Virus record (IMG/VR): IMGVR_UViG_3300044807_000022
Span: 21,064 to 85,063 of that record
Direction: 5' to 3' (one strand)
Source: a virus
DNA length: 64,000 nucleotides
Part shown: positions 1-63,988 of the stretch, one piece after another
How the letters are laid out: each line of letters begins with the position of its first letter
Position numbering within the stretch: the first letter of the stretch is position 1
Notes under the pieces: model-generated
The model's database searches: none
Told to the model about the DNA's origin: nothing
Seen by the model: only the letters and a program-made list of their open reading frames with translations
Program-made: the position numbers and the translations under genes

Positions 1-869
1 GCTCCACGTGCGGCATGACGTACCAGAAGCTCCCGCGCGGCGCAGAGCGCGCGAACTGGTGCTCGCACCTGCTGGAGTCGAACCCCAGCGGTGGCTACAC
101 GGCACGGGCGGGGGAAAGTCCAACTGCCGTTCGTATATTACGCCAAGTCTGCTTCACCGGGACCGGACTCATCTACGGAACTCGGGGGGCCAGAGGCGCA
201 GACCCACACGCGAACCTCGAAGCCTTCCAAGAAGAAGTAGCGGAGTACCACGAACGGTCTCACCGCACTGATACGCGAAAGCCCCGGAGGACTCGAACCA
301 GCATGGACCCCATCGAAGTCGCCAAGTCGGAGTACGAGGCCCTGCTGAAGCGGCCCGAGCAGAAGACGCTCGACGCTGCCATCGAGCGGGCGGAAGCCGC
401 CGAGGCGAAGGTCGCCACGCTGGAGGAGGAGAAGGCCGCCGCCGAGAAGGCGAAGGCCGACGCCGAGGAGGCCAAGGAGGCAGCCGAGAAGAAGGTCTCG
501 GACGCCGAGGAGAAGGCCGCCGCCGCCGACCTCAAGACCAAGCGTCTCGACGCGCTGGGCGAGGGCTTCAAGGCCAAGCTCGGCGCGAAGACCAAGGAGC
601 GCCTGACCGAGCAGGCCGGGACCATGAAGGACCCGGAGTGGGAGGCGCGCCTGGAGGAGCTTGCCGAGGCGTACGGCGTCAAGCCGGACGAGGCCAAGGC
701 CAGCACCGAGGCGGACGGCGACGAGACCGTCTTCACGCGCGACGAGGTTGCGCGGAGCAAGACGGCCGGTGCCTCCGAGGAGGAGCACGCCTCCGCGCAG
801 CCGTCCGAGGCCGCGCAGAAGAACGTCGTCGGCGGGCTGTTCTCGATGGCCCGCGCGGGGAAGCTCTAG
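1..869 (+). CDS. C-terminal part of prohead protease/scaffold protein (5' truncated by window); probable internal scaffold start at 302
   Basis: Frame is open from the window edge; N-part has C/H motif and VCFTGTGLI...GADP; C-part is an Ala/Glu/Lys coiled coil; lies directly upstream of the capsid genes. Confidence 0.6.
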   Translation, partial: STCGMTYQKLPRGAERANWCSHLLESNPSGGYTARAGESPTAVRILRQVCFTGTGLIYGTRGARGADPHANLEAFQEEVAEYHERSHRTDTRKPRRTRTSMDPIEVAKSEYEALLKRPEQKTLDAAIERAEAAEAKVATLEEEKAAAEKAKADAEEAKEAAEKKVSDAEEKAAAADLKTKRLDALGEGFKAKLGAKTKERLTEQAGTMKDPEWEARLEELAEAYGVKPDEAKASTEADGDETVFTRDEVARSKTAGASEEEHASAQPSEAAQKNVVGGLFSMARAGKL

Positions 870-945
870 GGCAACCCCGCACCTGAACCACCTGATCTGA
901 CCACCACCACCTGAACCGAACGAGACCCGAGGAGCAAGAACCAAG

Positions 946-1545
946 ATGGACTACGGCATCTTCCCGCTGAAGGACGCATCTGCGCTCCCCAACGTCTCGG
1001 TGGCGCATCCCGGCGAGGTCTGGACCCGAGGCGTGGCCTCGGGCGCGATCCGACCGGGCCAGGCCGTCGTTCCGGTCAACCGGACCGTCAACGGCCGCGA
1101 CACGCTCTGCTACAAGGCGGTCGGCGGCTCGGCCGACGTGTCGAGCGCGGCAGTCGCGCCGTCGCAGGTCGCCATCGCCATGCGCAAGATCGAGGTCCCG
1201 GACCAGAACAGCGGCTCGCAGTACAACGAGGCGCTGGGTCCGAACCAGATCGTCAACCTCCCGATCAGCGACGGCGACTACGTGCGCACGTACTTCTCGG
1301 GGGCGTTCCACCTGACCCAGATCGTCGCGGCCGACTACAAGCCCGGCGACCGGATCGGCTACGACCCGGCGGCCACGCCGCAGACGGGCAAGGTCGGGCC
1401 GGGCGCGTGGCGCAAGTCGGCGGACGCCGGGGCGGTCCTGAAGGACCACTTCGAGGTCATCGAGTTCCGGCGCTTCGAGCCCGCCGGGGGTGTCGCCAAC
1501 GAGGGCATCCTGACCGTCCGCAAGCTCGGGGCCGCGCAGTTCTAG
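946..1545 (+). CDS. Capsid decoration/stabilising protein (putative)
   Basis: 199 aa between scaffold and major capsid; strong GAGGAG RBS. Confidence 0.5.
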   Translation: MDYGIFPLKDASALPNVSVAHPGEVWTRGVASGAIRPGQAVVPVNRTVNGRDTLCYKAVGGSADVSSAAVAPSQVAIAMRKIEVPDQNSGSQYNEALGPNQIVNLPISDGDYVRTYFSGAFHLTQIVAADYKPGDRIGYDPAATPQTGKVGPGAWRKSADAGAVLKDHFEVIEFRRFEPAGGVANEGILTVRKLGAAQF

Positions 1546-1636
1546 GCCCCTGACCTGACCTGACGCGCGAGCAAACGCACCTACCCACCTTCCACACCGA
1601 AACCCTGACGAGAAACACGAGGAGCCCAGAGACCAG

Positions 1637-2693: not shown

Positions 2694-3521
2694 ATGGACA
2701 TGCCGCAGGACAAGACGCTCTGGAAGAACAACACCGCAAGCGTGGACCCCGAGCAGAAGGGGTTCATCATCGGGGTCTCGGTCTACGACCAGGAGCACAA
2801 GCAGACCCGCCAGCCGCTCATGCCCGGTGAGACCGTCTGGCTCACCGAGGACGAGCGCATCCTTACGGCGAACGCGCCGCGACTGGAGCAGGACAACCCG
2901 TTCACGAACGGCCACCTTCTCCAGGTCAACGAGGAGCAGCGGCCCATCGGCCGGTCCATCGGCGGCTCCACCACCACGACCGGCGAGACCGTCGCCCCCG
3001 TGGAGGACGTGGAGGCCACCGCCGCTGCCAAGGCCGAGGCGGACGCGCCCCCTGCCGATCCGGCCCCCGAGCCCGAGGCACCGGCCGCTCCCGAGGACCA
3101 CACGGTCGCGCCCCCGTCCGGCCCGCCGGTCGGCACGATCACCGAACTGCCGCCAGAGCTTCGCCTGGGCGGCGACAACGACACCGAGGCGGGCGAGCCC
3201 CCGGAGGTCTCAGGCCCCGTGAGCGTCGTCGGGGACGGAGAGGTCCGCGAGGTCGCAGAGGAGGAGCACGCGGCCGTAGGAGCCGCCACGGTGGCCGAGG
3301 AGACCGGCGCAGCCGTCCCGCCCGCCGGGGAGCCGCCCATCGGGGAGTACGCGCAGGACGAGGAGGTCGCGACCCCCGAGGCCGCAGCCGCCACGTCCGC
3401 CGAGGGGCCGCCGCCCGCGTCCCCGGACCCCATCGACCAGGAGCAGGGCCTTCACGCCCTGACCCCCGAGCCCGAGCCGACGCCCGAGAACGGGCCGGGC
3501 GGGCGCTTCCGGGTGAAGTAG
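2694..3521 (+). CDS. Hypothetical protein with acidic Pro/Ala/Glu low-complexity tail
   Basis: GGAGG RBS; folded-looking N-terminal ~85 aa then disordered region. Confidence 0.6.
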   Translation: MDMPQDKTLWKNNTASVDPEQKGFIIGVSVYDQEHKQTRQPLMPGETVWLTEDERILTANAPRLEQDNPFTNGHLLQVNEEQRPIGRSIGGSTTTTGETVAPVEDVEATAAAKAEADAPPADPAPEPEAPAAPEDHTVAPPSGPPVGTITELPPELRLGGDNDTEAGEPPEVSGPVSVVGDGEVREVAEEEHAAVGAATVAEETGAAVPPAGEPPIGEYAQDEEVATPEAAAATSAEGPPPASPDPIDQEQGLHALTPEPEPTPENGPGGRFRVK

Positions 3522-3525
3522 AGCT

Positions 3526-4176
3526 ATGGCGGTGACGGACCCTCGGGACGTACGGGTGATGATCCCGAGGGTCCGTCGTGCCCTCGACGGGCCGCAGGCG
3601 CTCACCAGCGGCTTCGTAGGGGGCCTCTCGGACGAGCAGGTCAAGAACTACATCGCGGATGCCGTCGCGAGCGTCATCTTCTACACGGGCGGCGTGTTCG
3701 GCGCGGCCCTCGAAGTGACCGAGCGCGACCCCGACTACAACGCCCCCTCGGAGTACCGCACCAGCCGCGAGTTGACGCTGCCCGAGCAAACCGTGATTGC
3801 CGTCCAGGCTTCGCTCGACCACTTCCATCACGAATTCAAGGGCGCGAAGGTCTCGGAGGCGATCCAGAACGAGTTCCAGTCGTGGGAGTGGTCGGTCAAC
3901 GGGCCGATGCTGCGCGACCAACTGAAGGCGCTCCTCGCACAGCGCGACGAGGCGCTGGACATGATCCGCCGCACGGGCAACGTCGGCGTGGACACCTACG
4001 CCTCGTTCCTGGCCGCGCAGGACGTGCAGGTCGCCATCGCCGTCGAGCCGTACACGATCTACGACACGGGCGGCTACATGCCCACGCGCGGCGGCGACTA
4101 CAGCGGCGGCGGCGTCAGCGGGCATACCGGCTTCGTCAGCGGTGACGGGCTCGGCGGCCTCGGGCTGTTCGGGTAG
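3526..4176 (+). CDS. Head-tail adaptor (putative)
   Basis: Synteny after capsid; 216 aa helical protein. Confidence 0.45.
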   Translation: MAVTDPRDVRVMIPRVRRALDGPQALTSGFVGGLSDEQVKNYIADAVASVIFYTGGVFGAALEVTERDPDYNAPSEYRTSRELTLPEQTVIAVQASLDHFHHEFKGAKVSEAIQNEFQSWEWSVNGPMLRDQLKALLAQRDEALDMIRRTGNVGVDTYASFLAAQDVQVAIAVEPYTIYDTGGYMPTRGGDYSGGGVSGHTGFVSGDGLGGLGLFG

Positions 4177-4181: not shown

Positions 4182-4592
4182 ATGGACAACGCCGCCTTCG
4201 CGGACGCCCAGAAGCGCCTCACCGACTACGTGGGGGAGCAGGTCGTGCTGATGTTCCCGACCGAGACGGTGTGGCCGCCCGGCACGAAGCTCGACCCCGA
4301 GTCCGGCCAGCCGCTCGATCCCTGGGTCGAGCCGGTCTCGTCCGGCTTCACCGAGTGGACGGGCTCCGCGTCGGTGGGAAGGCGTCTCGCGAACTCCCGA
4401 CTGCAATCAGGAGTTGAGTTCGAGCCCATCGGCGTCCAGGAGGGCGGGCCGATGCAGGTCCTCATCCCCATGGACTACTACCCGATTTCGTCCGGCGAGG
4501 CGAAGTACGCGCGGGTGCGCGGTCGCGAGTGGAAGGTGGAGGACACCGAACTCGACGTGTTCCGCTACGTGCTGCAACTGGAGCCCCGATGA
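4182..4592 (+). CDS. Head closure/stopper protein (putative)
   Basis: Synteny; beta-rich C-terminus (VRGREWKVE...YVLQLE). Confidence 0.45.
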   Translation: MDNAAFADAQKRLTDYVGEQVVLMFPTETVWPPGTKLDPESGQPLDPWVEPVSSGFTEWTGSASVGRRLANSRLQSGVEFEPIGVQEGGPMQVLIPMDYYPISSGEAKYARVRGREWKVEDTELDVFRYVLQLEPR

Positions 4593-5236: not shown

Positions 5237-5974
5237 GTGGCTGACTACTTTCAGCGCATCCTCCCGGACCTTGCTCAGGTCGAGCGGGTCTACAAGCTGT
5301 TCGTGGAAGTCGAGGCGGAACTCGTAACGGCCGTTAGGGTTTCGCCGGACCCCGCAGTGCGCCGCACCGCGCAGAATCAGGCCCGGCTGGTGCGCCGCGC
5401 CTACCAGCAGTTCCAGGAGGACCTGATCGCGCTCGCGCAGCGGTGCGCCGAGGTCGCCAACGAGGAGGTCATGCGCCTCTACCAGGACGCCCGCACCCCG
5501 CGCGGCGACACCGGCAACCCTCCCCACCTGTCCGAGGCCCTGCCCACGTCCGAGGCGGTGCCGACGCCGGTACCGGCGGGCGTCGTCGGCATCACGCGGC
5601 TGGACGCACTGGAGAAGTTCGAGTATTGGAAGGCGCAGGAGTTCGGCCTGGATGAGGGCTTCGTCGGCCGCGAGGTCAAGGGCTGGTTCTTTGGCACGGG
5701 CTTCAGCGGCCCGATCAGCGCGCCGGACCCCGGCCAGAGCCAGAACCACCCGCTGTTCAGGCCCTCCAGCACCGGCCGCACGATGCACATTCAGAACCCC
5801 ATCGAGCCCGGCCACTTCCTGACCGACACGGTGCGCACGGTCGAAGCGCTGTGGCTCAAGCTGATGAACGAGTCGGTGCGCGACGTGGTGCGTGACCTCG
5901 ACGCCGCGCTGGGCCAAGCCAGGCCCTCTGGCTACCGCGAGGGAGTGCTCCGTCGCGGTGCCCGTCGCCGTTAG
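5237..5974 (+). CDS. Neck/tail-completion protein (HK97 gp10-like, putative)
   Basis: YWKAQEFG and C-terminal P.HFL motifs; position. Confidence 0.45.
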   Translation: MADYFQRILPDLAQVERVYKLFVEVEAELVTAVRVSPDPAVRRTAQNQARLVRRAYQQFQEDLIALAQRCAEVANEEVMRLYQDARTPRGDTGNPPHLSEALPTSEAVPTPVPAGVVGITRLDALEKFEYWKAQEFGLDEGFVGREVKGWFFGTGFSGPISAPDPGQSQNHPLFRPSSTGRTMHIQNPIEPGHFLTDTVRTVEALWLKLMNESVRDVVRDLDAALGQARPSGYREGVLRRGARRR

Positions 5975-6029
5975 AAGTTCTGACGCCCGTTCGTATATTA
6001 CGTCTGAATAGGGCTGTCTGGACTGGCGT

Positions 6030-7722: not shown

Positions 7723-8625
7723 GTGATGGAGCCCCAAGACCAGGTAGACGAAACCGTGACGACCGTCGAGACTTCAGAGGGGCAGGAGGGCGCGCAGGAG
7801 GGGAACGTTTCCCAGCCGCCGATCTTCGCGTACTCCCGCTACCTCGATCTGCCCGAGGAGTGCGAGGCCGAGCAGGCGAAGCGCGGCTCCTGCAAGGACC
7901 CCGAGCACTTCCACGCCTGGCTGCGGCTGCCCAACAAGTTCGAGCACAAGGAGATTCGCGACGAGGCGCTGGCCGCCAAGGCGCGCAAGGCCCGCGCGCT
8001 GCGCATGGAGGGCTCGAACGCGTACGAGGTCCTGGAGGAGGAAATGGACCGCCTCCTGTCCGAGGCCGACACCGAGGACATAATCGTGGAGCTTCTGTCG
8101 CTCGACCACGCGGAGGACGTGGAGAAGGCGAAGCGCGAGGTCATGTCCATCGAGGCCGACCCGCTCGCGAAGGACGACCCGAGCGACGAGGACGAGGAGC
8201 CGGTCCTTCTCTACGAGCACATCGACCGTGACCAGGCGCGGCTGGACGAGCTTCAGGACATGCCCGAGAGCGAGCGGCCCGAGGACGAGTACGTGGAGCT
8301 ACTGAACCACGTCCACGGCTACTACACCGCGCTCGACAAGGAGCTTCAGGCCATCCAGGAGCCCGCTCGGGAGGCGTTCAGGGCCAAGGAGAAGTCCGAA
8401 CTGGTGAACATCATCAGGCAGGCGCGCATCCGCGCGGAGGGCACGCAGGAGTTCCTGCACGTCTACAACGCCCACCAGTGGGTCGCGGGCACGCTCAAGT
8501 CCGACAAGTCCGGACGGAAGTTCGGTGATCTGGAGCACCTGAAGTCGGCGGCCCCCGAGGTCGTCACCGCGATCCAGATGGCCTTCTACCTGATGGAGAA
8601 CGACGACCAGGCGGGAAAAGCGTAG
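7723..8625 (+). CDS. Tail assembly chaperone (gpG equivalent)
   Basis: Between tail tube and tape measure; ends at slippery G GGA AAA. Confidence 0.75.
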   Translation: MMEPQDQVDETVTTVETSEGQEGAQEGNVSQPPIFAYSRYLDLPEECEAEQAKRGSCKDPEHFHAWLRLPNKFEHKEIRDEALAAKARKARALRMEGSNAYEVLEEEMDRLLSEADTEDIIVELLSLDHAEDVEKAKREVMSIEADPLAKDDPSDEDEEPVLLYEHIDRDQARLDELQDMPESERPEDEYVELLNHVHGYYTALDKELQAIQEPAREAFRAKEKSELVNIIRQARIRAEGTQEFLHVYNAHQWVAGTLKSDKSGRKFGDLEHLKSAAPEVVTAIQMAFYLMENDDQAGKA

Positions 8626-8942: not shown

Positions 8943-11900
8943 TGGCCGACTTCAACAACCCCAGCGGAGCAGGAGCGAACCTCGGTGAAATCGAGGCGCG
9001 TCTTGCTGCGATCAAGCAGTCGGTCGCGCAACTGGAGTCACGACTTCAGCGGGACGTAGCGGCCGAGTCGAAGGGGGCCAGGCCGGGACGGCGGGCGACC
9101 GAGCGCGCGGTGCGCGACGAGCTTGGTCCCGAGACCACGCGGACGCGGGTGGAGGGCACCAGGGCGACCGAGGCCGACACGGGCGCGACCGAGCGCAACA
9201 CGCGCGCCCACCAGAACCGCACCAGGACGCTTGAGGAGGAGCTACGCGCCCAGCGCAGGGCCACCCGACTCCAGCAGCCGGTTCCGCCGTCCGTGGCCGC
9301 CCAGCAGTCGCGCATCCTGCCACAGGCGGCCAACGCCGAGCAGGACGCGGCGGCGCTGCGGCGGCAGGTGGAGGCCAAGCGTCTCCTGGCGAGTCTCGAC
9401 GGCCGCATGCTCACCGAGCAGCAGGCGGTCAACTCCGCGCTCTCCCAGGACATACAGAAGCGCGAACTGGCGTCACAGGGTCTCCGCAAGCACGGAGCCC
9501 TGACCACCGAGTTCATCAGCGCCGCCGCGCGCGGCAACGTGACCCTGCGCGAAATGGGCTTCCAGGTCGGGGCCACGGTCGGCAAGTTCGCCGGGTGGAC
9601 CGCCGCCGCCGGGGCCACGTACGGCGCGCTCGCGGCGGTCACCGCTCTCGGCAAGGGTGCGCTCGACGCCTCCAGCCAGGTCCAGATTCTCTCGAACTAC
9701 ATCACCGAGGGCTTCGACTCGGATCGGGCCAGCGAGCAGCTACGGCAACTCGCTCAGCAGTTCAACCTCCCCGTGGACCAGGTGGGTGAAGCCTTCCAGG
9801 GGATGGGCAAGATATTCCACGACCAGGAGTCCGCTTTCCAGGCCACACAGGCGGCGCTCTACGGCGTGAAGGTGGGCGAGCTTTCGGCCGCCGACTCCAC
9901 CAAGTACCTGACCGCCATCGTGAACGGGTTCCACCTGCCCGCCGAGCGGCTGGCGACGATTCTCGATCAGGTCAACCAGGCCCAGAACAACTACGGCGTA
10001 GCGATCAAGGACACCGTAGCGGGCACCGGCCAGGCCGCAGGCGCGTGGCGCGCGGCGGGCGGCGACCTGAACCAGTTGCTCGCGCTGATCGTGACCGGCG
10101 AGAAGGTCACCGGCCGCTCGGGCGTGAACATCGGCACGGCGCTCCAGCGGTCGGCCGAAATCATCCAGCGCTCGCCCAAGTCGCAGGAGGCGCTGCGCGG
10201 CTACGGGATCGACCCGACGCAGAACATCACGTCGATCTACCAGGAGGCCATCCGCAAGGTTCAGTCGGGCCAGATCAAGGGACCCGACGTGAACAAGCTC
10301 GCGTCGGCGCTCGCGACCCCGCAACTGTCGTCGCGCATTTCACCGATCCTCCAGAACGCCGAGCTTTACAACAACATCTTGCGCGACACGTCGCCCGAGG
10401 CGTCGAAGGGCTCCGCGCAGCGCGAGTTGGAGAACCGGCTGAAGGCCGTCTCCGAGCGCGCCAAGGAGGTCGGCATCAACCTCCAGGCCATCGGGGTCGA
10501 GCTTGGCCGCGCGGGTGCGTTCGACGCGTTCGGTGGCCTGCTCATCACACTGAACCTGACCCTCAAGGCCCTGACCGAGGTCCTGTCGCTGGTCAACGAA
10601 CTGCCCAAGGGCGTGCGCGAGGCCGTCGTCGTGGCTGCCGAGCTTTACGGCATCCTGCGGCTGATCCGGCGCTTCCGCCCGCCGAGCCTGAACGCCGAGA
10701 CGGGCGAGGTCACGCAGACGGGGTTCCTGAAGCAGCGCCCCGAGACTTTCCAGCGCAAGACGCTCCAGGAGGCCGCGCGCAACCAGGTCAAGTTCTACCA
10801 GGACGAGCAGGAGCGGCTGGCCCGCAACCTGCCGACGCAGCGGCTCACTGCCTCCACCGCCGTCGAGACGCGCAACGCCGTCGCCGCGCGCGAGGCCGCC
10901 GCCGTGCAGGCTGGCAGCGCCGACGCCGGACGACGCCTGATCGCGGCCGAGACGGCGGCCACGAACTCGCTGGCTCGGGTGGCCGAGACCGAGGCGCAGC
11001 TTGCCGCCGTCGAGGCGCGCCTGATCGCCGCCCGCGAAGCTGAAACTGCCGTTAGCAATTCCAACCTGCGTCAGGCGAAGCGCCAGGGCAAGGATGCGAC
11101 CACGGTCGCTCGCGAGGCTGGCATCTACCACCAGCCCGGCACGACGGACCGGCCGACGCCGGATCGCCCCGTGCCGGTGGCCGGTGGCCCCGGCGCGGCC
11201 AAGCGGGTCTCGGAGGAGGCCACGAAGATCGCCCGGCAGGAGCAGGAGATAGCCGCCGCGCAGAGCAGGTTCGGTGGGGTCACCGAGCGCGTCTCGAACG
11301 GCTTCAACCGAGCGCGCGGCGGGATCGACCGACTGGCGTCAGGACTTCGCGGCTTCGCGGGCTCGATGGGTGGCTTGTTCACCGCCGGGCTCATCACGCT
11401 TTTCGCCGCCGACGCGCTCAAGAACTACTTCGAGAACCAGGGCAAGAAGGCCGACCGTCTCGGCAGCGGCCCGCAGAGCCAGGCCGAGGCCGACCGCTGG
11501 CGGGAGGGCGACTTCGGCCACTCGTTCGGTGACCTCTACGACCCGACGACCGACCGGCTGAACCGCGACACCGAGCAGCGCTACTACGACCTCCAGCAGC
11601 AGGTCATCAACGGCCGGAAGCCCTACTCGGCGTTCGTGCGCCACCGGCCCACGCGCTACCAGCAGGCGACGAGCCTGTTCCGGGATGCGCCGCCGCTCGG
11701 GAGCACGCAGCAGGGCTTCGGCCCGGACGATCCGTTCAACGCGCCCGGTCCCAACACCGGGTTCAACAACAAGCTCGGCCTGTTCGGTGCGCCGCCGCCC
11801 AAGCCGTCGTACACCGGCCCGGTGCCGTTCAGGTTCGTGGGCGACATTGTGGCCGACGCCAAGGCCGTCGTGGACCTCTACAAGCAGGGCAAGGCGTCCA

Positions 11901-13555
11901 GGCAGGAGGCTCAGGATGCGGTCCACAAGGCCCTCCAGGAGACGCAGACCGCGCGCGGGTCCGAGAAGGACGTAGCGGCGGGCAAGCGCCTCCTCCAGCA
12001 GACCCGCGCGGTGCTCGGCCCCGACGCGAAGCACCACATCAGCCTCCTCCAGGAACTCAAGGCGCTCTCGCCCAAGGACCTGATCGCGTACGTCCAGGGC
12101 AACACGGCGGCCATCGAAGGGCTCGGCACCGACAAGGGGAACCTGGGGGCCGCTGCGGTCGCTCTGCGGGCCGCTATCGCCAAGGGCGGGGCTCACCCGA
12201 CCGGAGACCAGGCGAAGGCGATCAAGGCCGCACGCGACGGCGTGAAGGCCACGCTCGCGCAGATCGACCAGGAGTACCAGGAGGCAGTGTCGCTCGCGGA
12301 CGGCAGCGCCGGGGCCGAGGCGCGCGCGTTCAACGAGGCCAAGGCCAAGATCGGCAAGACGCACGGCGGCAAGGACGCGGCGCGCCAGATGCAGACGCTC
12401 GTCAGCGAGGCCATCGCGCAGGCGTCGAAGGACCTCCAGGACGACCTGGTGCTCGCGCGCGGTGACCCGTCCAGGATCGCGGCGGCCTACCGGCGGGCGA
12501 TGCAGAAGGTCAAGGGCACCGGCAACTCGCGCCAGTCGCAGGTGGCTCAGCAGCAGCTTCTCGAACAGCAGTTCCAGCAGGACGTGACGAACATCGACTC
12601 GTCCACGAACCTCGCGGCTGCCCGCGACCCCGCCAACGCCATCGGTATCCGCCTGCGTGGCATCGGCCAGAAAATCGCAGCGGCAATCAGGACTTTCGGT
12701 CGCAACTCGAACCAGGTCCAAGACCTCATCGCCCAGCAGTACGACCTCCAGAAGCAGGCGGTCGATGAACAGGTCGCGCTCATCAACGCGAACACGTCGG
12801 TCGCGCAGGCGACGGCGAAGACCCCGGCGGGCGAGGCGCGCGCGGCGGTCAGCGGTGCGCTGGCGGCCTACAACGCCATGAAGGCGTCCGGCAAGTACAA
12901 GCCGTCCGAGCTTCGCGCCGCGTACGGCCAGTACCTCGCGGCCGTGAAGGGCCTCCACCAGCAGCTTCGCGCCGACGCTCAGGCGTACGCCGACTCCGTG
13001 ACCGCGCTCGCGCTCTCGCGCACCGACGACCCGGTGAAGCAGGCCACGATCCAGCTTCAGGCCGCCCTCCGCAACCTCCGCAGGGCACAGACGCCGACCG
13101 AGCGCAACCAGGCCCTCGCGGCGGTGAACACTGCGCGCCGGAACCGTCGCCAGACGATCCAGCAGGGCAAGTACGACGACATTGAGTATTACGCGAGCAT
13201 CGGCAAGCTCACCGCCGACGCCGAGATTCAGTCGCTCGAAGCGCTGGAGAAGTCCATCAAGGGCAACAAGAACCTGCGCCGCCAGATCAAGCAGCGCATC
13301 TACCAGTTGAAGCAGCAGTTGAACTCGGACGCCAACGGCCTCGACCTGAACCTCGACAACATCAAGCTCCCCACCACCTACGAGATTCGCCGCGCCGTGC
13401 TCGGCGGCGGCCCCCGGCGCTCGAACATCACCGTCCACAACCGTCCCACGGTGAACGTGGAAGTGAACGACCCCGGCGCTGCCGATGCGGTCTACACGGC
13501 CATCGAGGACACCCTTGGAACGTCGCTCACCGCCGCCAGGAGGGCAGGCCGCTAA
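8942..13555 (+). CDS. Tape measure protein
   Basis: 1537 aa Ala/Gln-rich helical protein with TP901-like core (TGRSGVNIGTAL). Confidence 0.9.
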   Translation: MADFNNPSGAGANLGEIEARLAAIKQSVAQLESRLQRDVAAESKGARPGRRATERAVRDELGPETTRTRVEGTRATEADTGATERNTRAHQNRTRTLEEELRAQRRATRLQQPVPPSVAAQQSRILPQAANAEQDAAALRRQVEAKRLLASLDGRMLTEQQAVNSALSQDIQKRELASQGLRKHGALTTEFISAAARGNVTLREMGFQVGATVGKFAGWTAAAGATYGALAAVTALGKGALDASSQVQILSNYITEGFDSDRASEQLRQLAQQFNLPVDQVGEAFQGMGKIFHDQESAFQATQAALYGVKVGELSAADSTKYLTAIVNGFHLPAERLATILDQVNQAQNNYGVAIKDTVAGTGQAAGAWRAAGGDLNQLLALIVTGEKVTGRSGVNIGTALQRSAEIIQRSPKSQEALRGYGIDPTQNITSIYQEAIRKVQSGQIKGPDVNKLASALATPQLSSRISPILQNAELYNNILRDTSPEASKGSAQRELENRLKAVSERAKEVGINLQAIGVELGRAGAFDAFGGLLITLNLTLKALTEVLSLVNELPKGVREAVVVAAELYGILRLIRRFRPPSLNAETGEVTQTGFLKQRPETFQRKTLQEAARNQVKFYQDEQERLARNLPTQRLTASTAVETRNAVAAREAAAVQAGSADAGRRLIAAETAATNSLARVAETEAQLAAVEARLIAAREAETAVSNSNLRQAKRQGKDATTVAREAGIYHQPGTTDRPTPDRPVPVAGGPGAAKRVSEEATKIARQEQEIAAAQSRFGGVTERVSNGFNRARGGIDRLASGLRGFAGSMGGLFTAGLITLFAADALKNYFENQGKKADRLGSGPQSQAEADRWREGDFGHSFGDLYDPTTDRLNRDTEQRYYDLQQQVINGRKPYSAFVRHRPTRYQQATSLFRDAPPLGSTQQGFGPDDPFNAPGPNTGFNNKLGLFGAPPPKPSYTGPVPFRFVGDIVADAKAVVDLYKQGKASRQEAQDAVHKALQETQTARGSEKDVAAGKRLLQQTRAVLGPDAKHHISLLQELKALSPKDLIAYVQGNTAAIEGLGTDKGNLGAAAVALRAAIAKGGAHPTGDQAKAIKAARDGVKATLAQIDQEYQEAVSLADGSAGAEARAFNEAKAKIGKTHGGKDAARQMQTLVSEAIAQASKDLQDDLVLARGDPSRIAAAYRRAMQKVKGTGNSRQSQVAQQQLLEQQFQQDVTNIDSSTNLAAARDPANAIGIRLRGIGQKIAAAIRTFGRNSNQVQDLIAQQYDLQKQAVDEQVALINANTSVAQATAKTPAGEARAAVSGALAAYNAMKASGKYKPSELRAAYGQYLAAVKGLHQQLRADAQAYADSVTALALSRTDDPVKQATIQLQAALRNLRRAQTPTERNQALAAVNTARRNRRQTIQQGKYDDIEYYASIGKLTADAEIQSLEALEKSIKGNKNLRRQIKQRIYQLKQQLNSDANGLDLNLDNIKLPTTYEIRRAVLGGGPRRSNITVHNRPTVNVEVNDPGAADAVYTAIEDTLGTSLTAARRAGR

Positions 13556-13992
13556 TGCCGCGCACCGCCAACCGCTTCCTGAACCCGTGGACAGGTGCCA
13601 CGTACGACTGGCCGATCAACCACTCCGAGGAGGAGTCGTTCGGCAAGGCGCGGAACATCGAGCACACCGCGCCGACGAGCGCCAACGGGCTCATCCGTCA
13701 GCAGGGCGACGATAGTCCGATGACAATTAAGATTTCAGGGACGGTCTTCCACAAGGCGCAGCACCAGGCGTTCATCGACTGGTTCGAGCGGAGCCGGACG
13801 CAGACCATCTACTGGCGGAACTTCGACGGCGAGGAGTTCGAGGTCATCTTCACCAGCTACCAGCCGCAGAAGCACCGCACGCTGCGCAACCCGCGCGACT
13901 TCGCGAACGCGCCCTACCACTACTGGACGTACACGATGGAGTTCGACGTGGTGCGCTTCATATCGGGCGTCTGGGAAGACACCCTCCCCTAG
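13555..13992 (+). CDS. Distal tail protein-like minor tail protein
   Basis: Immediately after tape measure; 145 aa. Confidence 0.55.
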   Translation: MPRTANRFLNPWTGATYDWPINHSEEESFGKARNIEHTAPTSANGLIRQQGDDSPMTIKISGTVFHKAQHQAFIDWFERSRTQTIYWRNFDGEEFEVIFTSYQPQKHRTLRNPRDFANAPYHYWTYTMEFDVVRFISGVWEDTLP

Positions 13993-46892: not shown

Positions 46893-48113
46893 TTACGACG
46901 GGTTGATGCCGAACGCTTCCTTCTGCACCCAATCCTTGTCGGACTGGATCGACTTCGCGAGTTCCGCGAGCGTGGACGCGTCTCGGCCGTCCTTGTTCGC
47001 GGCCTCCAGCTTCTCCTCGACCTTCGCGCTGAGCAGGTCGAGCAGGCGCTTCACGCGGATGGCCTGACCGATCTGCTCCTGGTTGTTCGGGTCGATGGTG
47101 CCTGCGGCCGTGAGTTGCTGGAACTCGACCTTGATCGGGTCGTACTCGTCCTGGTACTTCGCAGCCGCGCGCTCGAACTCGGACGCGAAGTCGAGCACGA
47201 TGCGGTAGGCGGTCTGCTCGTCCTCGGGCTCGCGCCAGATGACGTGCTGGAACACCTTTATGTCGTCGGACAGCACTTCGTCGCGACCGGCCATGTACGC
47301 CTTCGCCTGCATGAGCTTCACGCCCGCGCCGAACCGGCGAGGGTTGATGTGAAGGTTCTGCTCCATGCACATGCGACGGAGACGTGCGAGGTCGTCCATC
47401 ACGGAGTCCGGCACGTCGATGGCGGCCGTCTCGCTGATGGCCGCGTTCACGTCGTCCACGGTCATCTGCGTGAACGTCGTCGCGACCGTGTTGCCGAGCC
47501 TGCGCGCGATCTGCCCACGCAGCACGGCCTTGAACCCGTCGTCCGAGCGTACGTCGTGGACCATCTTCGTTACGACGATCCGGTCACGGAACGCGCGCAG
47601 GTCGTCGCGGTCCAGGCCCGGCAGTTCGTTCGACGCGAAGCCGCACGTCCACAGGGGCACGGGGATCGCGCCCCCGTTGTTGTCGAACTGGCGCTCGTTG
47701 ATGATCTTGAGCATCGAGTTCAGCACGTTCGCGGGGGCCTTGAAGACCTCATCCACGAACGCCAGGTGCGCGTCCGGGAGCTTGCCCGAGACGTTGCGCT
47801 CGAACTTGTCCTGCTCCAGCGCCTTCAGCGACACCGGACCCAGAAGCTCCTCGGCGGGCGTCTGCTTGAACACCAGCCGCTCGAAGTAGCGCGCGCCGTC
47901 CACGTGGCGCGCGAGGAGCCGCAGGGTCATCGACTTCGCCACGCCGGGGATGCCGATGAACAGCGGGTGCTCCATCGCGAGCAGGCAGAGGTAGATCAGT
48001 TCGACCTCCTCGTTGCGCTCGACCAGTTCGGCCTTGTCCTCGCGCATGCACTGCTGCAACTGCTGCGCGAGGGACGGCGTGGCCGCCTTCGCCTTCGCTC
48101 CTGTTGTTGCCAT
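46893..48113 (-). CDS. MoxR-family AAA+ ATPase (RavA-like)
   Basis: LVERNEE, GIPGVAKS, EELLGP, FVDEVFKA, INER, ASNELP, DR. Confidence 0.88.
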   Translation of the reverse strand: MATTGAKAKAATPSLAQQLQQCMREDKAELVERNEEVELIYLCLLAMEHPLFIGIPGVAKSMTLRLLARHVDGARYFERLVFKQTPAEELLGPVSLKALEQDKFERNVSGKLPDAHLAFVDEVFKAPANVLNSMLKIINERQFDNNGGAIPVPLWTCGFASNELPGLDRDDLRAFRDRIVVTKMVHDVRSDDGFKAVLRGQIARRLGNTVATTFTQMTVDDVNAAISETAAIDVPDSVMDDLARLRRMCMEQNLHINPRRFGAGVKLMQAKAYMAGRDEVLSDDIKVFQHVIWREPEDEQTAYRIVLDFASEFERAAAKYQDEYDPIKVEFQQLTAAGTIDPNNQEQIGQAIRVKRLLDLLSAKVEEKLEAANKDGRDASTLAELAKSIQSDKDWVQKEAFGINPS

Positions 48114-48143: not shown

Positions 48144-48179
48144 CTACTGCCTGAAACCGGCTATGCCGGAAAGTGTGAC
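48144..48179 (-). promoter_or_regulatory. Phage-specific promoter-like motif copy 1
   Basis: GTCACACTTTCCGGCATAGCCGGTTTCAGGCAGTAG, about 30 nt upstream of the RavA-like ATG. Confidence 0.7.
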
Positions 48180-48255
48180 GGTGGCTAGAGCTTCGTGATC
48201 GCGGCCACCACGTCGATCAGGATGGCCGCGCTGAGCACGACCTTCGTTCGTACGC

Positions 48256-49026: not shown

Positions 49027-49070
49027 CGCCAGCCTCCGTTCGTCGCGATCCCGCGACTGCCGTTGGGAGT

Positions 49071-49834
49071 TTACACCTTCCGGCAACTGCCAGAAGGCTC
49101 GGGCTGTCCGAACACGTAGGGCGCTACGCGCTCGAAGTCGTGGGGCTCGGGCATTTCGTCCGGCTCCACGGCCACGCGGGCGTCACGCGCCCGTTCGCTG
49201 AGTGCGAGGCGGTCGGTGTCCTCGTTGCCCATAGCTCAGTCCTCCGCAGGGTTCGTGTACGTCTCGGTCGGGTCCTCGTCCAGCACGCGCGCGACCGGGA
49301 TCACGTCCACGTCGTCGCTGCCGGGCACGGTGCTCTTGATGCAGATGAGCGCGTGGCCGTGGCCGGTCGTCTTCTCGCGAGCGTGCATGAGGAACACGTC
49401 GTCGTTCGCTGCCGCCTGCATCAGCGTGTCGAAGTTCGCGCGGTCCTCGGGCAGGAGCGCGGTCGGGCGTGGGTCCTCGCCGCCCAGGTGTGCGCGCATG
49501 GCGTCGATGGCGTCACGCAACGGCCGGAAGTGCTCGTTGAGCGTCAGCTTGGCGACCTTCTCGCTCTGCCCGCTCGCTTCGTTGAGGAGTTCGCTCGCGC
49601 GGCGCTCGGCCGCGCCGAGTACGAGGTCCATCTGCTCGGGCGTCAGCATGCGACCACCTGCGCGCTCCTGCCCTGCCAGACCTCCGCGTGGAAGTCCGCG
49701 CGGTCGCTGGCGGGCGTCCAGAGGACCACGATGCGCGATGCCTCGGGGTGCTGTTCGCTCGCGCGAGCATGCGCCGCAGCGCGTGCCTTCTCGCACGGCG
49801 CGTTCCCGCGTTCGGGCAGACGGTATATCCGCAT
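49071..49834 (-). CDS. Three small hypothetical genes (49071-49232, 49236-49649, 49643-49834)
   Basis: RBS and coupling. Confidence 0.5.
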
Positions 49835-51065: not shown

Positions 51066-51101
51066 CTACCTGCCGAAACCGGTTACTATGGAAAGTGTGA
51101 C
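51066..51101 (-). promoter_or_regulatory. Phage-specific promoter-like motif copy 3
   Basis: GTCACACTTTCCATAGTAACCGGTTTCGGCAGGTAG upstream of ATG 51042. Confidence 0.7.
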
Positions 51102-51141
51102 GGCCGTCAGAGGATCGGCCGCAGAACCGGAAGGGGTCTCA

Positions 51142-52227
51142 ATGTCGGTACTAGCTGAAGCGGTTGAAGTCGAGACGGCAGAGCGGGAGCGACCCGCGAG
51201 GGAAGCGGCGGCCGTGGTCGCGGCGGCACGCGTGGCCGATGAGCGCGTGACAGAGCGGGAGCTACTGACGGCATGCGGTCGCGCGGTCGCGGTCGCGTGT
51301 CGGTCTCTGTCGCACGATGAGCGGGAGGACCTGACCGCTCACCTGGCAGAGACGATCGCGCGGAAGGCGGGCGCACTGACGGCCGCCGCTCACGTGCGCG
51401 GCGATGAGCGGACCCCGCACGATTGGACCCCGCCGCGCCGACTGATCGCACACTCCTACCTGACCCGCCGCGCCGCTCACCTGTGGGCGCGGGAGCGGGA
51501 GCGACTGATCGCGGGTCGCGCCGATGCGCGGCCGTCCATGCTTGACCAGTCACGGCAGGCGGGCGCGCTCAGTCTCAACCCTGGCGGCACGCTTGAGTCA
51601 GAGGACCCGGACACGGACACGGGCGCAAGCTCGCGGTCAATCCTGGCGGCGGCGGCGGACCTGGCGGGCCACCCCGCGCCCGCTCCCGAGAACGTGGACG
51701 TGGCGCGCACGTGCGAGGCCCTAGGCGTCTCTGCCACTGCGGCCGATGCCGTGCGCGCCGCTCTGAGCGGTTGGGGGTCGGCGCTTGACCTGGCGCGCGC
51801 TCTGAACGTGTCGCACGCGTCGGCGCGTAAGCGTCTCCAGCGCGGGCGCGATGCCGTGCGGGCGCGCTACCCGGACCCGGCCGCTCTGCTAGCCGCTCTG
51901 GGCGATGCCCTGGCGGACGCGCCCGATCCTGAGCGCGTGGCAGAGCGGGTCCGCCTGAGCGCCGCAGAGCGCGCCGCAGAGGATGCCGTGACGGCCGTCA
52001 AGCGTTCCCCTGCGCACGGGTCCGGGGTCCGCTCTGACCCGGCCGTCACCCTGCGCGCCACGCGCCGCAATTGGCGGGGCTACCTGCGCGGGGTCACGGG
52101 TCCGGCGCGCCCGGCCGTGACCTACTGCGGCCGGACCTGGCGGGCACCCCGTGAGCAGGGGGCCACCTGGCAAGCGCCCGTCACGCGGGAGGCCCTGATC
52201 GCGGGGGGTTGGATCACCCCGGCCTAG
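51142..52227 (+). CDS. Divergent sigma-factor-like protein
   Basis: Region 2-like HDEREDLTAHL...SYLTRRAAHLWARER; region 4-like SALDLARALNVSHASARKRLQRGRDAVR; atypical codons. Confidence 0.55.
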   Translation: MSVLAEAVEVETAERERPAREAAAVVAAARVADERVTERELLTACGRAVAVACRSLSHDEREDLTAHLAETIARKAGALTAAAHVRGDERTPHDWTPPRRLIAHSYLTRRAAHLWARERERLIAGRADARPSMLDQSRQAGALSLNPGGTLESEDPDTDTGASSRSILAAAADLAGHPAPAPENVDVARTCEALGVSATAADAVRAALSGWGSALDLARALNVSHASARKRLQRGRDAVRARYPDPAALLAALGDALADAPDPERVAERVRLSAAERAAEDAVTAVKRSPAHGSGVRSDPAVTLRATRRNWRGYLRGVTGPARPAVTYCGRTWRAPREQGATWQAPVTREALIAGGWITPA

Positions 52228-56034: not shown

Positions 56035-56668
56035 TGGCCGTCAGCCGATCCAAGCCGCACTGCCCGTTCTGCAACGGCTGGCAGGCGGTCAGACGCCGCC
56101 GCCCGGACTCGGGGGTCCTGGGCCTCGCGCCGTGCCCGCGCTGCACGTCGCGGCTCCCACGTGGCTTCGCCGCCACCGGCCTCGCTGCCATGGACTTCGA
56201 CTCGACTGACTCGCCCTCGGTCGATCAGGCGTTCCCGGACGGCAACTACCGCTGGCCCGACCCCGGCGAGGTCTGCCTCGACGTGCTCGCGACCGTGCAG
56301 TTGTACTGGCCTCGGACCGGACCGCCCCAATGACCGCCAACCGGAGCTTCAAGCAACGCGTGCGCGCTCGCATGGAGGAGACTGGCGAGAAGTACACCGA
56401 GGCGCGCCGCGCCCTCCTGGAGGCGGATGGCCGCCAGCCGGATAGTGTGACGCCCGTTAAACGATCCGAGCCGCAGCAGAGCGACGAGTCGTTGGTCCGG
56501 GGCTTCTTCGAGGAGCTTGATCGCCGCATCGCGGGCACCAGCGGGTCGCTGTCGCGCGAGCGCCGCGAGCGACTGGCGAATCTGAAGCCCGTCCTCGTCA
56601 AGCGGCACAAGGACGATCCCGAGGGCTTCGCCCGCCGCCTGCGCGACTCCCTGCCGTCGCTGCGCTAA
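56034..56668 (+). CDS. Two hypothetical genes (56034-56333 Zn-binding; 56330-56668)
   Basis: CPFC/CPRC; KQRVRARMEETGEKYTEARRAL motif. Confidence 0.55.
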
Positions 56669-61222: not shown

Positions 61223-61226
61223 GACC

Positions 61227-61700
61227 GTGGCAACCGACGCAGAACGCATCAGCACGCTCCTCCGTCAGGGGTTCAGTGCCGACGCCATCGCCGCGCTCCT
61301 CGACACGGACCTGGCGACCGTTCACGACGTGCAGGTGGGCGACGGCGAGTTGCCCGCGTCGGGCGGTGGGGGTAGCGGACTCGTCGTCGGCACCTGGGAG
61401 ACCAGGGAGGACCTGCCCTCGACGCTCGACGGCGACGGGTACGACCTCGCCGGGGTCGAGGGGGCGAGCGAGCTTGAGTTCCAGTGGGTGGGGCAGCCGA
61501 GCGCCAGCGGCGGCTTCTCGATCACCGACGCGGACACCAGCGAGGAGTACGGCTTCGACATGCAGTCGTTCGGGGACTGGACCCCGCTGATGACGATACG
61601 GTGCATCGTCCCGCCGGGGGCCGACGTGCATATCCAGCCGATGTTCGGCGCGACCGACAGCTTCGTCTCCCAGCGGCTTCGCCGCCGCACCCTCAGCTAG
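61227..61700 (+). CDS. Modular protein B: shared N-module plus a different beta domain
   Basis: Paralogous N-terminus with 60743. Confidence 0.55.
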   Translation: MATDAERISTLLRQGFSADAIAALLDTDLATVHDVQVGDGELPASGGGGSGLVVGTWETREDLPSTLDGDGYDLAGVEGASELEFQWVGQPSASGGFSITDADTSEEYGFDMQSFGDWTPLMTIRCIVPPGADVHIQPMFGATDSFVSQRLRRRTLS

Positions 61701-61761
61701 ACTGCCCGCTGGCGGCGGCCCGTGAGGGCGGCTTCTAACTGGCTGGCGAACTGGAGGGGTG

Positions 61762-63988
61762 ATGGCAGAGACGATCTTCGAGCGCGCGTCACGGCGTGCG
61801 AAGGGGCGCGGGCTCGGTGGCGGGAACGCGGTCCGGAGCCGCCCTGGCGACGACACGCGGCCCGGCCATGTCTGGGTCTGCCACCACTGCGCGTTCACGA
61901 CGACCGACGTGCAGGAGGCGCTGGAGCACCCGTACGCCGAGCCGGGCAACTTCACGCACTGGCTGCATGAGCATCCTCTCGGCAACCGGGGCATGCCCGC
62001 CGTCCGCGAGATTCACTCCAGCGACGTAGGTGGCTGCTACCTGTCGCCCATCCCGGCGGCCAGCGCATCGGACGATGCCAGGCGGTGGCGGGATCGAGCC
62101 AGCGCTGGCGGGGTCTTCTGACGTGCGAAGTTCTGACGGGAATCAGACGATGGTCAAGGTCTACGACGCGGCGACGAGCGACGGCAAGGCTCGCCTCACG
62201 ATCTGGGCCGAGAACCCGCCGCCGCCCGACGTGCTCGCGTTCTGGGAGTCGGGCCAGCGGGTCGCCGCGACCTACTGGATGGACGACGAGGGGCGGGTGG
62301 AGCCGTGCAGTACACCTACCGCCATCTGAACATCATCGTGTGCGGCGACGGGCGCAGGGTCTTCGACAAGGGCCTCAAGATCGTGCCGAGGACCGGCGGC
62401 GACAAGTGCGTGGTCGAGCTTTACCAGGACGGCGAGCTACTGGCGCGCGGCGTGGGCGACGACCTGAACCTCGCCGCCGACTTGGTGTGCCAGCAGGTGT
62501 TGCAGGAGGCCGCCAGTGCGTGACCCGGCCGTACTCATCGTTGTGCTCGTCCTCCTGCCGTTCGTGTTCGGTGGCCGTGGGAACCGTCGCCATGGGCGCT
62601 GGTAGCGTCCGAGGGCAGCGCCCGGACCTGATCGTCTACGACGAGGCCGTGGACGTGCCAGAGTCGCCATACAAGCTGGAGGAGCCGCCGGACAACCTGA
62701 AGGGCGCGTTCCTCTCGGGCACGCTGGTCCACACGTCGTTCTCGGGTGTGGCCTACATCAACATTCAGCGCGAGTGGGACGAATGGAAGGTGCGCCTGGA
62801 GAGGATCGCTCGCGAGCGCGGCATCCGCATGGGCCTGAAGGCATGGCTCGACACCGGGGCCACCGAGTCGAGGGCGCAGATGATCGTGCAACTGCAAGTG
62901 GACGATCCCGAGCTACCGGACGCGCACCGCGTGAAGACCTACCAGGCCATCGACGGCTGGCCGCAGGAGGCGATCTGGAAGGCGCTGCACGCGGCGGGCC
63001 TGGTGCTGGAGCGCGAGCTTCCATGAGCGCGATCCCGGAGCCCGAGCTACCGCGCCGGTTCGGCATGGACCAGCGCGCGCTCGCCGCCGCGAACATCATG
63101 CGGCGACAGCTTCACGCCGAACCGGCGCACCCCGTCGAGTACGGCTGCCAGTTCGAGTACGCGGAGGTCCTGCCGTCGCTCGTCGGCCTGCCGTCCGGCT
63201 GGCTGTGGATAGCCGACTCGGGGCGCTTCGAGCGGCCGTTCCTGGCTGGCGCGTTGGCGGTGATGGCGGTCCACCGCATGCGCGACCTGCTGCCAGGCGA
63301 GCGGCTGTGGATGCACCTGTACCCGGAGCCCATGCAGACCGGCGTCGGCATCGACCCGCGCACGCTCGTCATGCAGCCGTGGGTGTCCATCGACACGGAG
63401 CGGCAGGACTACGCGATCTGGAAGACGACGGGCGCGCTGTACGAGTCGGACCCCTGGGAGGGCGTGGCCGACGACCCGATCTGGGTGCCTCCCGCCGAGG
63501 CTGTCGAAAAGCTAACGGGAGTTACACCATTCGATCTGCCGGGACCGCCCAGCCTCTAATTGCGAAGCTCGCGGGTAAAGCCCCTGCAAACCGGCCGGGA
63601 CCGGGCGCGGGGCCAGCACGGGGTGGGCGATCTTGATACGTTCCCGCCGTCCAGTCAGCTACCCCAAAGGGGGCGCAGTATGGAAGCATCGCAGAGGACC
63701 GGCGGCACGGACGGAGGCCAGAAGACGTGGCTCCTCGGGTTCCAGTGGTCGTACGAAGGCATGACGCTGGACGAGGCTCGCGAGAAGGCCGAGCAGATCG
63801 CGGACTACGCCGAGGGCATCGGCGTGAACCGCGTAGCGGGGTCCGTGGCGAACGCGCGCGAGCGTGACGCCATCGAGTCGTTCGAGTTCGGCTCGCAGGA
63901 GCCGTTCCGCAACCAGCACGCGATCACGGGGCACTCCTCCGTGGCCGGGGCCATCGCCAGCGGGTCGGGAGCACGCCAGCCCGCATAG
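61762..63988 (+). CDS. Run of hypothetical genes (61762-62121, 62150-62329, 62305-62523, 62592-63026, 63023-63559, 63680-63988)
   Basis: RBS, coupling and codon bias. Confidence 0.5.

Follow-up and report, generated by a model that had tools for sequence, protein, structure and literature searches.

An evenly spaced 26-bp palindrome, selected at the DNA level, along an 85-kb virus genome

The virus record IMGVR_UViG_3300044807_000022 from IMG/VR, a complete genome of 85,063 bp (G000 in the comparisons below), contains a 26-bp palindrome that recurs along its entire length. The window analyzed here is a 64,000-bp stretch, bases 21,064 to 85,063 of that record, and window coordinates are used throughout unless marked “genome.” The palindrome has the consensus GGAA-sy-CCTGACGG|CCGTCAGG-rs-TTCC, a degenerate 12-2-12 dyad of about 22 bits whose information sits in G-A-A (positions -13 to -11), R-A-C-K (-5 to -2), and the mirror positions. 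It is found in 98 copies, 80 of them within the window, and is evenly spaced and selected at the DNA level. It very probably represents a protein docking site, with a symmetric DNA-binding reader as the best-supported mechanism.

Distribution and selection of the palindrome

An initial annotation, made by eye from the sequence, described the element by a degenerate (IUPAC-coded) pattern and expected fewer than one chance match per 64 kb. This expectation holds: in the window, the pattern is matched exactly 52 times, whereas 100 dinucleotide shuffles give 0.06 matches on average and never more than 1; the whole genome has 63 matches. A symmetrized matrix, refined iteratively on the whole genome, converged on the 98 sites; it recovers all 42 exact matches and all 11 near-matches listed by eye and adds 27 more in the window. 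The score distribution is clearly bimodal, with 91 sites above 16 bits (0.1 in shuffles), and a seed-free motif search finds the same palindrome again. The annotation had allowed that the motif might be equally dense in other high-G+C DNA, which is not what is seen: an 8-Mb high-G+C Polyangia assembly has 15 matches to the pattern, about 400-fold fewer per base than G000 (the true host may differ), and the related phages G003 and G005 have 0 to 1.

As the annotation stated, most copies lie inside genes. Seventy-one of the 98 (about 72%) fall wholly within crude gene calls, in all three codon phases (23, 31, and 17 in phases 0, 1, and 2) and in genes of both strands. A codon-preserving shuffle, which the annotation had named as a possible refutation, did not refute the motif: when synonymous codons were shuffled within each gene, preserving proteins and codon usage, 2.2 sites above 16 bits remained (maximum of 6 in 100 shuffles) versus 66 observed. 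The reported coincidence with rare codons is likewise borne out, with codons ending in A or T making up 40% of those within sites and 10% of those elsewhere. The palindrome is thus selected at the DNA level.

The gap between sites averages 863 bp, shorter than the 1 to 1.5 kb given at first, but the even spacing is confirmed: the coefficient of variation (CV) is 0.58 versus 0.99 for random placement, none of 5,000 simulations is as regular, and the smallest gap is 114 bp versus a random median of 6. Site number follows DNA length, not gene number, and six sites fall in a single 4.6-kb gene. Because long genes hold several sites, the regularity belongs to the DNA itself and does not reflect one site per gene. 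The densest cluster (29778-30828) has four sites in 800 bp, starting inside a gene for a 164-aa protein. Two gaps of about 3 kb coincide with a gene for an 823-aa protein (genome 16483-18954) and with the scaffold/major-capsid region (window 140-3136).

Arm complementarity within sites (164) is no higher than the 172 +/- 10 predicted from column composition (z = -0.8), so that mirror positions do not covary; selection maintains neither an RNA hairpin nor a cruciform. Isolated half-sites occur at chance on both strands (25 versus 24 expected at 10 bits and 6 versus 5.5 at 12 bits). Function therefore resides in two inverted half-sites a fixed distance apart, the arrangement expected of a two-fold symmetric protein bound to duplex DNA. 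Two familiar classes of repeats were considered and ruled out: repetitive extragenic palindromes (REP/BIME), as the sites are mostly intragenic and their arms do not covary, and an uptake signal or Chi-type oriented single word, as isolated half-sites are at chance on both strands. Within G000, pairing at mirror positions -11/+10, -2/+1, and -1/0 falls below expectation, and the fully symmetric core RACT-NN-AGTY is nearly missing (2 copies versus about 14 estimated from column frequencies). Hybrid ACG..AGT cores are common in G000, whereas its relatives G001, G002, and G004 favor ACT..AGT.

The sites in the window are as follows. All are 26-bp dyads without strand, bits are refined-matrix scores, and gene context is from crude gene calls.

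114..139, 25 bits, in a gene; right arm overlaps the TTCGTATATTA promoter-like element
3137..3162, 20 bits, in gene 2694-3521
3787..3812, 21 bits, in a gene
4391..4416, 26 bits, in a gene
5318..5343, 31 bits, in a gene
5974..5999, 23 bits, gene edge or intergenic; overlaps the TTCGTATATTA element
7750..7775, 25 bits
8505..8530, 16 bits
9022..9047, 18 bits, tape-measure-size gene
9457..9482, 17 bits, tape-measure-size gene
10315..10340, 17 bits, tape-measure-size gene
11036..11061, 24 bits, tape-measure-size gene
11323..11348, 24 bits, tape-measure-size gene
12671..12696, 21 bits, tape-measure-size gene
13711..13736, 25 bits
14391..14416, 21 bits
15428..15453, 20 bits
15826..15851, 18 bits
16432..16457, 20 bits
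17293..17318, 25 bits
18342..18367, 26 bits, just upstream of gene 18372-19028
19480..19505, 16 bits
19840..19865, 20 bits, start of gene 19863-20918
21209..21234, 29 bits
21531..21556, 17 bits, PD-(D/E)XK nuclease gene
22647..22672, 18 bits, PD-(D/E)XK nuclease gene
23100..23125, 20 bits
23572..23597, 22 bits
24783..24808, 12 bits (weak), DnaB gene
24992..25017, 25 bits, DnaB gene
25582..25607, 14 bits (weak), DnaB gene
26206..26231, 18 bits
26663..26688, 26 bits
27197..27222, 18 bits, XRE-type helix-turn-helix (HTH) gene
27734..27759, 20 bits, intergenic
28234..28259, 22 bits, GT92-like gene
28646..28671, 17 bits, GT92-like gene
29426..29451, 14 bits (weak)
30011..30036, 27 bits, first of the densest cluster; inside the gene for the 164-aa protein with a C-terminal HTH
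30427..30452, 18 bits, dense cluster
30541..30566, 16 bits, dense cluster
30803..30828, 18 bits, dense cluster
31435..31460, 30 bits
31958..31983, 16 bits
32466..32491, 18 bits
33018..33043, 20 bits
33467..33492, 20 bits
34006..34031, 26 bits, just upstream of gene 33697-34002 (-)
34588..34613, 20 bits
35422..35447, 25 bits, integrase gene
36362..36387, 23 bits, gene for the 161-aa HTH protein
37409..37434, 24 bits
38533..38558, 24 bits, overlaps the GGAGG ribosome-binding site of gene 38289-38528 (-)
38962..38987, 17 bits
39399..39424, 26 bits
40212..40237, 26 bits
41232..41257, 25 bits
41820..41845, 25 bits, 3' edge of RuvB-like gene
42652..42677, 19 bits, RuvB-like gene
43317..43342, 13 bits (weak)
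43856..43881, 25 bits, intergenic
44942..44967, 28 bits, near 5' end of DUF6744 gene
45701..45726, 17 bits, VWA gene
46798..46823, 27 bits, overlaps the ribosome-binding site of the VWA gene
48169..48194, 19 bits, one arm in a repeated promoter-like element upstream of the MoxR gene
49047..49072, 25 bits
49881..49906, 23 bits, shares the GTCACACTTTCC arm of the promoter-like element
51091..51116, 29 bits, one arm in the repeated promoter-like element
51982..52007, 26 bits
53288..53313, 27 bits
55028..55053, 22 bits
56025..56050, 23 bits, gene junction
56441..56466, 25 bits
57606..57631, 28 bits
59060..59085, 25 bits
60018..60043, 22 bits
60708..60733, 21 bits, right arm overlaps the TTCGTAGATTA element upstream of gene 60743-61222
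62127..62152, 24 bits
62882..62907, 19 bits
63506..63531, 22 bits

Six sites overlap repeated promoter-like elements (predicted promoters), and two overlap GGAGG ribosome-binding sites. At window sites 114, 5974, and 60708 and at genome position 20373, the right arm runs into TTCGTA(T/G)ATTA. This element, which includes a -10-like TAKATT, begins within or right after the arm (window 114-141, 5974-6001, and 60708-60735; genome 20373-20405). Sites 48169, 49881, and 51091 have one arm, GTCACACTTTCC, in common; in the two regions inspected beyond it, at 48169 (48169-48240) and 51091 (51091-51160), a conserved promoter-like block ..ATAG..ACCGGTTTC..GCAGGTAG.. is seen, where it sits upstream of leftward genes, including the MoxR operon. 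A total of 34 sites lie within 100 bp of gene starts, a modest enrichment over the 22.8 +/- 4.4 expected. An extracytoplasmic-function (ECF) promoter reading (GGAAC ... CGTC) was rejected by eye, as the spacer is 10 nt and not 16 to 17.

Variants and losses in related phages

Ten related genomes from IMG/VR (G001 to G010) bring the comparison to 11 genomes, which fall into two well-supported clades in portal and terminase trees. Six of the ten relatives carry a lineage variant of their own, and the RACK-NN-MGTY core and the 2-bp center are common to all:

G010: gAantcnnGACGcgCGTCnngantTc (lower case, weaker position), 32 sites in 42 kb of a 45%-complete genome
G001: gcGACTnnAGTCgc, with A/T outer positions, about 150 to 170 sites, the most site-rich genome
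G002: gangnCncgACTnnAGTcgnGncntc, 102 sites
G004: tAncnncgaACTnnAGTtcgnngnTa, 133 sites in 68 kb
G006: TACggnccaaCtnnaGttggnccGTA, 57 sites
G009: near-identical to the G006 variant, 59 sites

In all seven motif-bearing genomes, G000 included, the CV of the spacing is 0.51 to 0.78. Six of the seven are more regular than random (P <= 0.005), and the incomplete G010 has a P value of about 0.10. These genomes share only about 45 to 60% protein identity yet keep the even spacing. Positional conservation is only partial and fades with divergence. Thus, G006 and G009 have 6 of 14 to 26 alignable sites at shared positions (0.3 expected), the G000/G001 pair has 5 of 25 orthologous positions, and the G000/G002 pair has 0 of 23; at the conserved terminase peptide PDYRRNI, a site is found only in G000, L010, and L011. 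The array as a whole keeps its density and even spacing, and individual sites turn over. The presence of lineage variants around one core in both clades is as expected if reader and sites co-evolve.

The remaining relatives, G003, G005, G007, and G008, show no motif excess with any variant matrix (0 to 4 sites versus 1 to 2 expected), and a de novo search of these genomes for a 28-bp even-centered palindrome found none. As the motif occurs in both clades, it has been lost at least two or three times. Searches at other widths, exact dyad counts, and an expectation-maximization search for rare-codon hot spots missed known positives too, and a motif of another architecture is possible in these four genomes. 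The word ATCT-N6-AGAT in G003 was considered as such a motif and rejected because it resembled coding repeats. G003, G005, and G007, which also lack the MoxR operon, share a 562-aa SNF2-family helicase (L104:5295-6983, +, in G005) and a few small genes, none of which is found in any motif-bearing genome.

Candidate readers and possible functions

The initial annotation proposed that a dimeric phage protein binds the sites along the whole genome. A two-fold symmetric reader of duplex DNA fits the dyad, the lack of covariation, the half-site counts, and the lineage variants; the four binders proposed there are not supported by their distribution. Gene content was compared with motif presence, using the following genes as points of reference:

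43955..45067 (-), DUF6744 protein of the MoxR operon (Pfam DUF6744, 4e-18)
45123..46793 (-), VWA-domain protein of the MoxR operon (Pfam VWA_2)
46893..48113 (-), MoxR-type AAA+ ATPase (Pfam bpMoxR, 4e-40), candidate accessory gene with imperfect tracking
36139..36624 (-), 161-aa protein with a GerE/LuxR-like N-terminal HTH, beside the integrase (Pfam GerE, 4e-7), candidate reader in G000 only
29778..30272 (+), 164-aa protein at the densest cluster, weak C-terminal HTH (HTH_17, 8.6e-5; HTH_3, 2.3e-4; below the Pfam cut-off)

None of the Pfam families ParB_N, MerR_1, HTH_17, HTH_3, RHH_1, HU/IHF, and GerE follows the motif. Of the binders named in the annotation, the 161-aa HTH protein belongs to an integrase-adjacent family (HTH LTERQQEI..LL..GKT..EIA..LGIT.NAVYQHI.RMR, followed by an Arg/Gly-rich linker) that is found in 7 of the 11 genomes: G000, G002, G004, G006, and G009 but also the motif-less G003 and G008. 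It is undetected in the motif-rich G001. The integrase (35035-36045) is present in every genome that has that region (the 45%-complete G010 shows none), and the products of 26649-27146 and 27136-27471 have zero or one detectable homologue among the relatives. The 164-aa protein has no detectable homologue there, and a 50-aa open reading frame whose distribution at first sight matched the motif in one clade is probably a spurious frame. In the complete G000 genome, ParB_N (PF02195) is undetected at E <= 0.1, with positive results in control genomes, and no HU/IHF-type protein is found in any of the 11 genomes. The reader may belong to an unrecognized family, may be too diverged to detect, or may be host encoded.

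The MoxR, VWA, and DUF6744 genes, along with a gene for a 102-aa protein, are the only G000 genes that are shared by G001, G002, and G004 but found in neither G003 nor G005. The operon is found in all 6 sufficiently complete motif-bearing genomes and is absent from 3 of the 4 motif-less ones (G003, G005, and G007); the fourth, G008, keeps it intact together with the 102-aa gene. Unrelated phages and Bacillota commonly carry DUF6744 and MoxR-VWA pairs as well. The predicted structure of the DUF6744 protein (pLDDT of 72) starts with a basic disordered N terminus and ends in a bundle of helices. The matches to this model in Foldseek and VIA were generic helical bundles only, with no DNA-binding fold, and an Atlas search returned DUF6744 clusters only. 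The gene for the 102-aa protein lies outside the window, just upstream of the endolysin gene (L001, genome 5587-5895, +), and has the distribution of the MoxR operon. The Atlas structure neighbors of this protein include RNA polymerase-interacting domains of CarD and TRCF (TM score of about 0.62), a predicted likeness that can serve as a lead only.

The closest described case is that of the Cluster O mycobacteriophages, whose 17-bp dyad repeat TGTTCGGNNNCCGAACA is an invariant inverted repeat of 7-3-7 geometry (TGTTCGG-N3-CCGAACA) that occurs 34 times per 70 kb and has an unexplained function (Cresawn et al. 2015, PMC4351075). The annotation's remark that no described system matches was therefore too strong, as this repeat also occurs genome-wide in more than 30 copies (PMC4351075). 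In both cases, a private palindrome with a proposed dimeric binder is found in tens of copies, partly in genes, across a high-G+C siphovirus-type genome of roughly 70 to 85 kb and is essentially missing from host-type DNA. Glycosyl- and O-methyltransferase genes are likewise found in both phage groups (PMC4351075). The two elements share no sequence similarity, and that of G000 differs in being 26 bp long, even-centered (12-2-12), and degenerate (about 22 bits). It is also three times denser (98 versus 34 copies), more often deep in genes (72% versus about 30%), evenly spaced, and represented by diverged variants in a deep family, whereas Cluster O comprises five near-identical genomes. To our knowledge, genome-wide private phage palindromes of the Cluster O type have never been explained.

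The stoperators of Cluster A mycobacteriophages are asymmetric 13-bp sites read by a monomeric two-domain protein, the immunity repressor (PMC9283540, PMC6550527). The G000 lattice resembles them in the many copies of one site genome-wide and in the variation by lineage of the site and, presumably, its reader; a stoperator serves both at a promoter and at distant positions, a double use that the six G000 sites at predicted promoters may share. However, the G000 sites are palindromic, twice as long, about twice as dense, mostly wholly inside genes, and without orientation. Stoperators are oriented with transcription and lie mostly in short intergenic gaps. In the KorB-OB system of the IncP plasmid RK2, a dimer acts from palindromic operators to silence promoters about 1 kb away (PMC11790492). 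The distribution of palindromic sites over a whole replicon is shared with this system and with ParB-parS and Noc-NBS; unlike KorB-OB, G000 has no ParB_N/CTPase match, a several-fold higher site density, and sites inside genes. The DosR box TTSGGGACTWWAGTCCCSAA is the site of a LuxR-family dimer (PMC2275270). LuxR/NarL boxes have the same even-centered geometry with a 2-bp center, the GACT-NN-AGTC core of G001 and G002 is that of the DosR box, and G000 encodes a GerE-like HTH protein. In contrast, the DosR box serves the promoters of a cellular regulon, at tens of sites per 4.4 Mb, and the HTH family of these phages is distributed independently of the motif. The identity of the cores indicates only that this geometry suits an HTH dimer and is no proof as to the reader.

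In the mechanism that we favor, the 26-bp GAA-sy-CCTGACGG|CCGTCAGG-rs-TTC element would be a high-affinity duplex docking site for a two-fold symmetric, probably dimeric protein, most likely phage encoded and co-evolving with its sites. Selection keeps about one site per 0.5 to 1.5 kb, evenly spread over the whole chromosome, at the cost of rare A/T-ending codons, with turnover of single sites. At some predicted promoters, the bound dimer would cover the -10/-35 region and exclude RNA polymerase; inside genes, it would block elongation in both directions. In lysogeny or early infection, this would silence the entire genome or time its expression, and the lattice would be a symmetric, denser analogue of the Cluster A stoperators. 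This operator/roadblock reading is favored because of the promoter overlaps and the temperate gene set. We infer transcriptional silencing by a phage-encoded protein tentatively, giving it somewhat less than an even chance.

Several observations weigh against this reading. Across the 11 genomes, no recognizable DNA-binding family has the distribution of the motif, gene-content comparison did not identify the reader, and the most site-rich genome, G001, has no detectable member of the HTH families tested. About 72% of the sites lie deep in genes, far from promoters, and the same in-gene placement led the Cluster O authors to doubt a transcriptional role for their repeats (PMC4351075). The orientation test that supports the stoperator reading is inapplicable to a palindrome, which has no orientation. 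Four relatives do without the motif, so that its function is dispensable or replaceable, and the even spacing suits an organizing or protective role equally well.

Such a role would have the sites load or nucleate a spreading, bridging, or sliding phage protein for compaction, segregation, or shielding, in the manner of KorB-OB, ParB-parS, or Noc-NBS. Even spacing would guarantee full coverage of the viral chromosome, it is kept in all motif-bearing genomes despite site turnover, and density scales with DNA length and not with gene number. KorB, moreover, acts up to 1.5 kb from its spread palindromic operators, on the same length scale (PMC11790492). The genome, however, encodes no detected ParB_N/CTPase domain, HU/IHF-type proteins are found in 0 of 11 genomes, and the site density is about five times that of RK2 OB sites; on balance, this role appears rather unlikely. 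RK2 has 12 OB sites on about 60 kb. The reader might instead be, or depend on, the MoxR AAA+/VWA/DUF6744 operon (43955-48113), perhaps with the 102-aa protein, as an ATP-driven machine at the dyads. The distribution of the operon, for which the trees require two or more separate losses, is consistent with this, as are the sites on its promoter-like element and ribosome-binding site and the basic N terminus and helical bundle of the DUF6744 model. The proposal is nevertheless unlikely to be correct, given the intact operon and 102-aa gene in the motif-less G008, the lack of a DNA-binding fold, and the occurrence of such modules in unrelated phages and Bacillota, where they are usually read as assembly chaperones (PMC7824862). 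The association is also weak in ten genomes (Fisher test estimated by hand, about 0.03, uncorrected for common descent).

A host protein, such as a LuxR/NarL-type regulator or a nucleoid protein recruited or titrated by the phage, would account for the failure of phage DNA-binding families to track the motif. The variants would then reflect different hosts, and the motif-less relatives would infect hosts lacking the factor; the scattered losses could follow host switches, and the core of some variants is a bacterial LuxR-family box. This is nonetheless quite unlikely, as the Polyangia assembly, the sole hint of a host, has almost no sites and no evident host regulon, and the flanks change quickly from one sister phage to the next, behavior more in keeping with a private pairing of reader and site. 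An enzyme that modifies or nicks DNA, or a restriction-like nuclease paired with its own protector, is very unlikely to explain the dyad. Type II-like enzymes typically act at two-fold symmetric sites built on a short conserved core, a known restriction site class has the form GAC-N4-GTC, and the genome encodes methyltransferase-fold and glycosyltransferase genes. However, enzyme sites are far shorter than an element of 22 bits over 26 bp, phages usually deplete nuclease sites and do not enrich them, and the methyltransferase match is to Methyltransf_24, of the O-methyltransferase type; no DNA methylase family is found among the approximately 50 of about 105 proteins scanned, with no search by name made. 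Finally, the explanation can hardly lie in RNA or cruciform structure, in an oriented signal on one strand (Chi-like or primase), or in a by-product of repeated peptides or codon usage. The perfect consensus would fold as a hairpin, and some peptides recur at sites (e.g., T-A/T-V in phase 1), but neither arm complementarity nor lone half-sites exceed chance, the sites occupy three phases, genes of both strands, and intergenic DNA, and synonymous shuffles destroy them.

In this deep family of roughly 85-kb soil phages, the evenly spaced lattice might be read by a protein of no recognized DNA-binding family, possibly MoxR-VWA-DUF6744, and control or protect the whole genome as a unit; this has distinctly less than an even chance but, if true, would be a mode of whole-genome marking that has not been mechanistically described for any phage. 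A reader with a new fold would define a new class of sequence-specific DNA binders and reveal a further level of genome regulation in phages, one by which the evolution of coding sequences is constrained. Whether such lattices silence, organize, or shield a whole phage chromosome is a testable question, as the motif-less relatives are natural “knock-outs,” and G000 is an unusually clean case: a long, information-rich element in about 100 copies, with measurable selection against codon preference.

Gene content and possible host

G000 has a G+C content of 68% and an exact 127-bp direct terminal repeat at the genome ends, and its record is present in soil metagenome runs. Its predicted gene content is that of a tailed phage and includes a large terminase (weak match), an endolysin, and RNase H. 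A gene of 4.6 kb for a 1537-aa protein without a family match is taken as the tape measure from its size alone. Replication and recombination genes include those for DnaB, a RuvB-like ATPase, and a PD-(D/E)XK nuclease. The tyrosine integrase and the adjoining GerE-like HTH protein mark the phage as temperate in build. Several genes of the glycosyl- and O-methyltransferase types are found, and those of the Methyltransf_24, GT92-like, GT2, and GT1/GT4 types cluster around dnaB (24018-32582, +).

Searches with megablast and tblastn against INPHARED found no close cultured phage, and metagenome scans found no near-identical relative. The terminase has more than 600 metagenomic homologues, many of them on 80- to 87-kb contigs, which points to a large uncultured phage family. 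The contig of one relative was binned in a Polyangia (Myxococcota) assembly, a weak hint that members of this class are hosts of the family. Four terminase homologues of about 900 aa (P0058, P0068, P0110, and P0116) carry LAGLIDADG/Hom_end domains (PF14528 and PF05204), which suggests inteins or homing endonuclease insertions in the terminase of this family.

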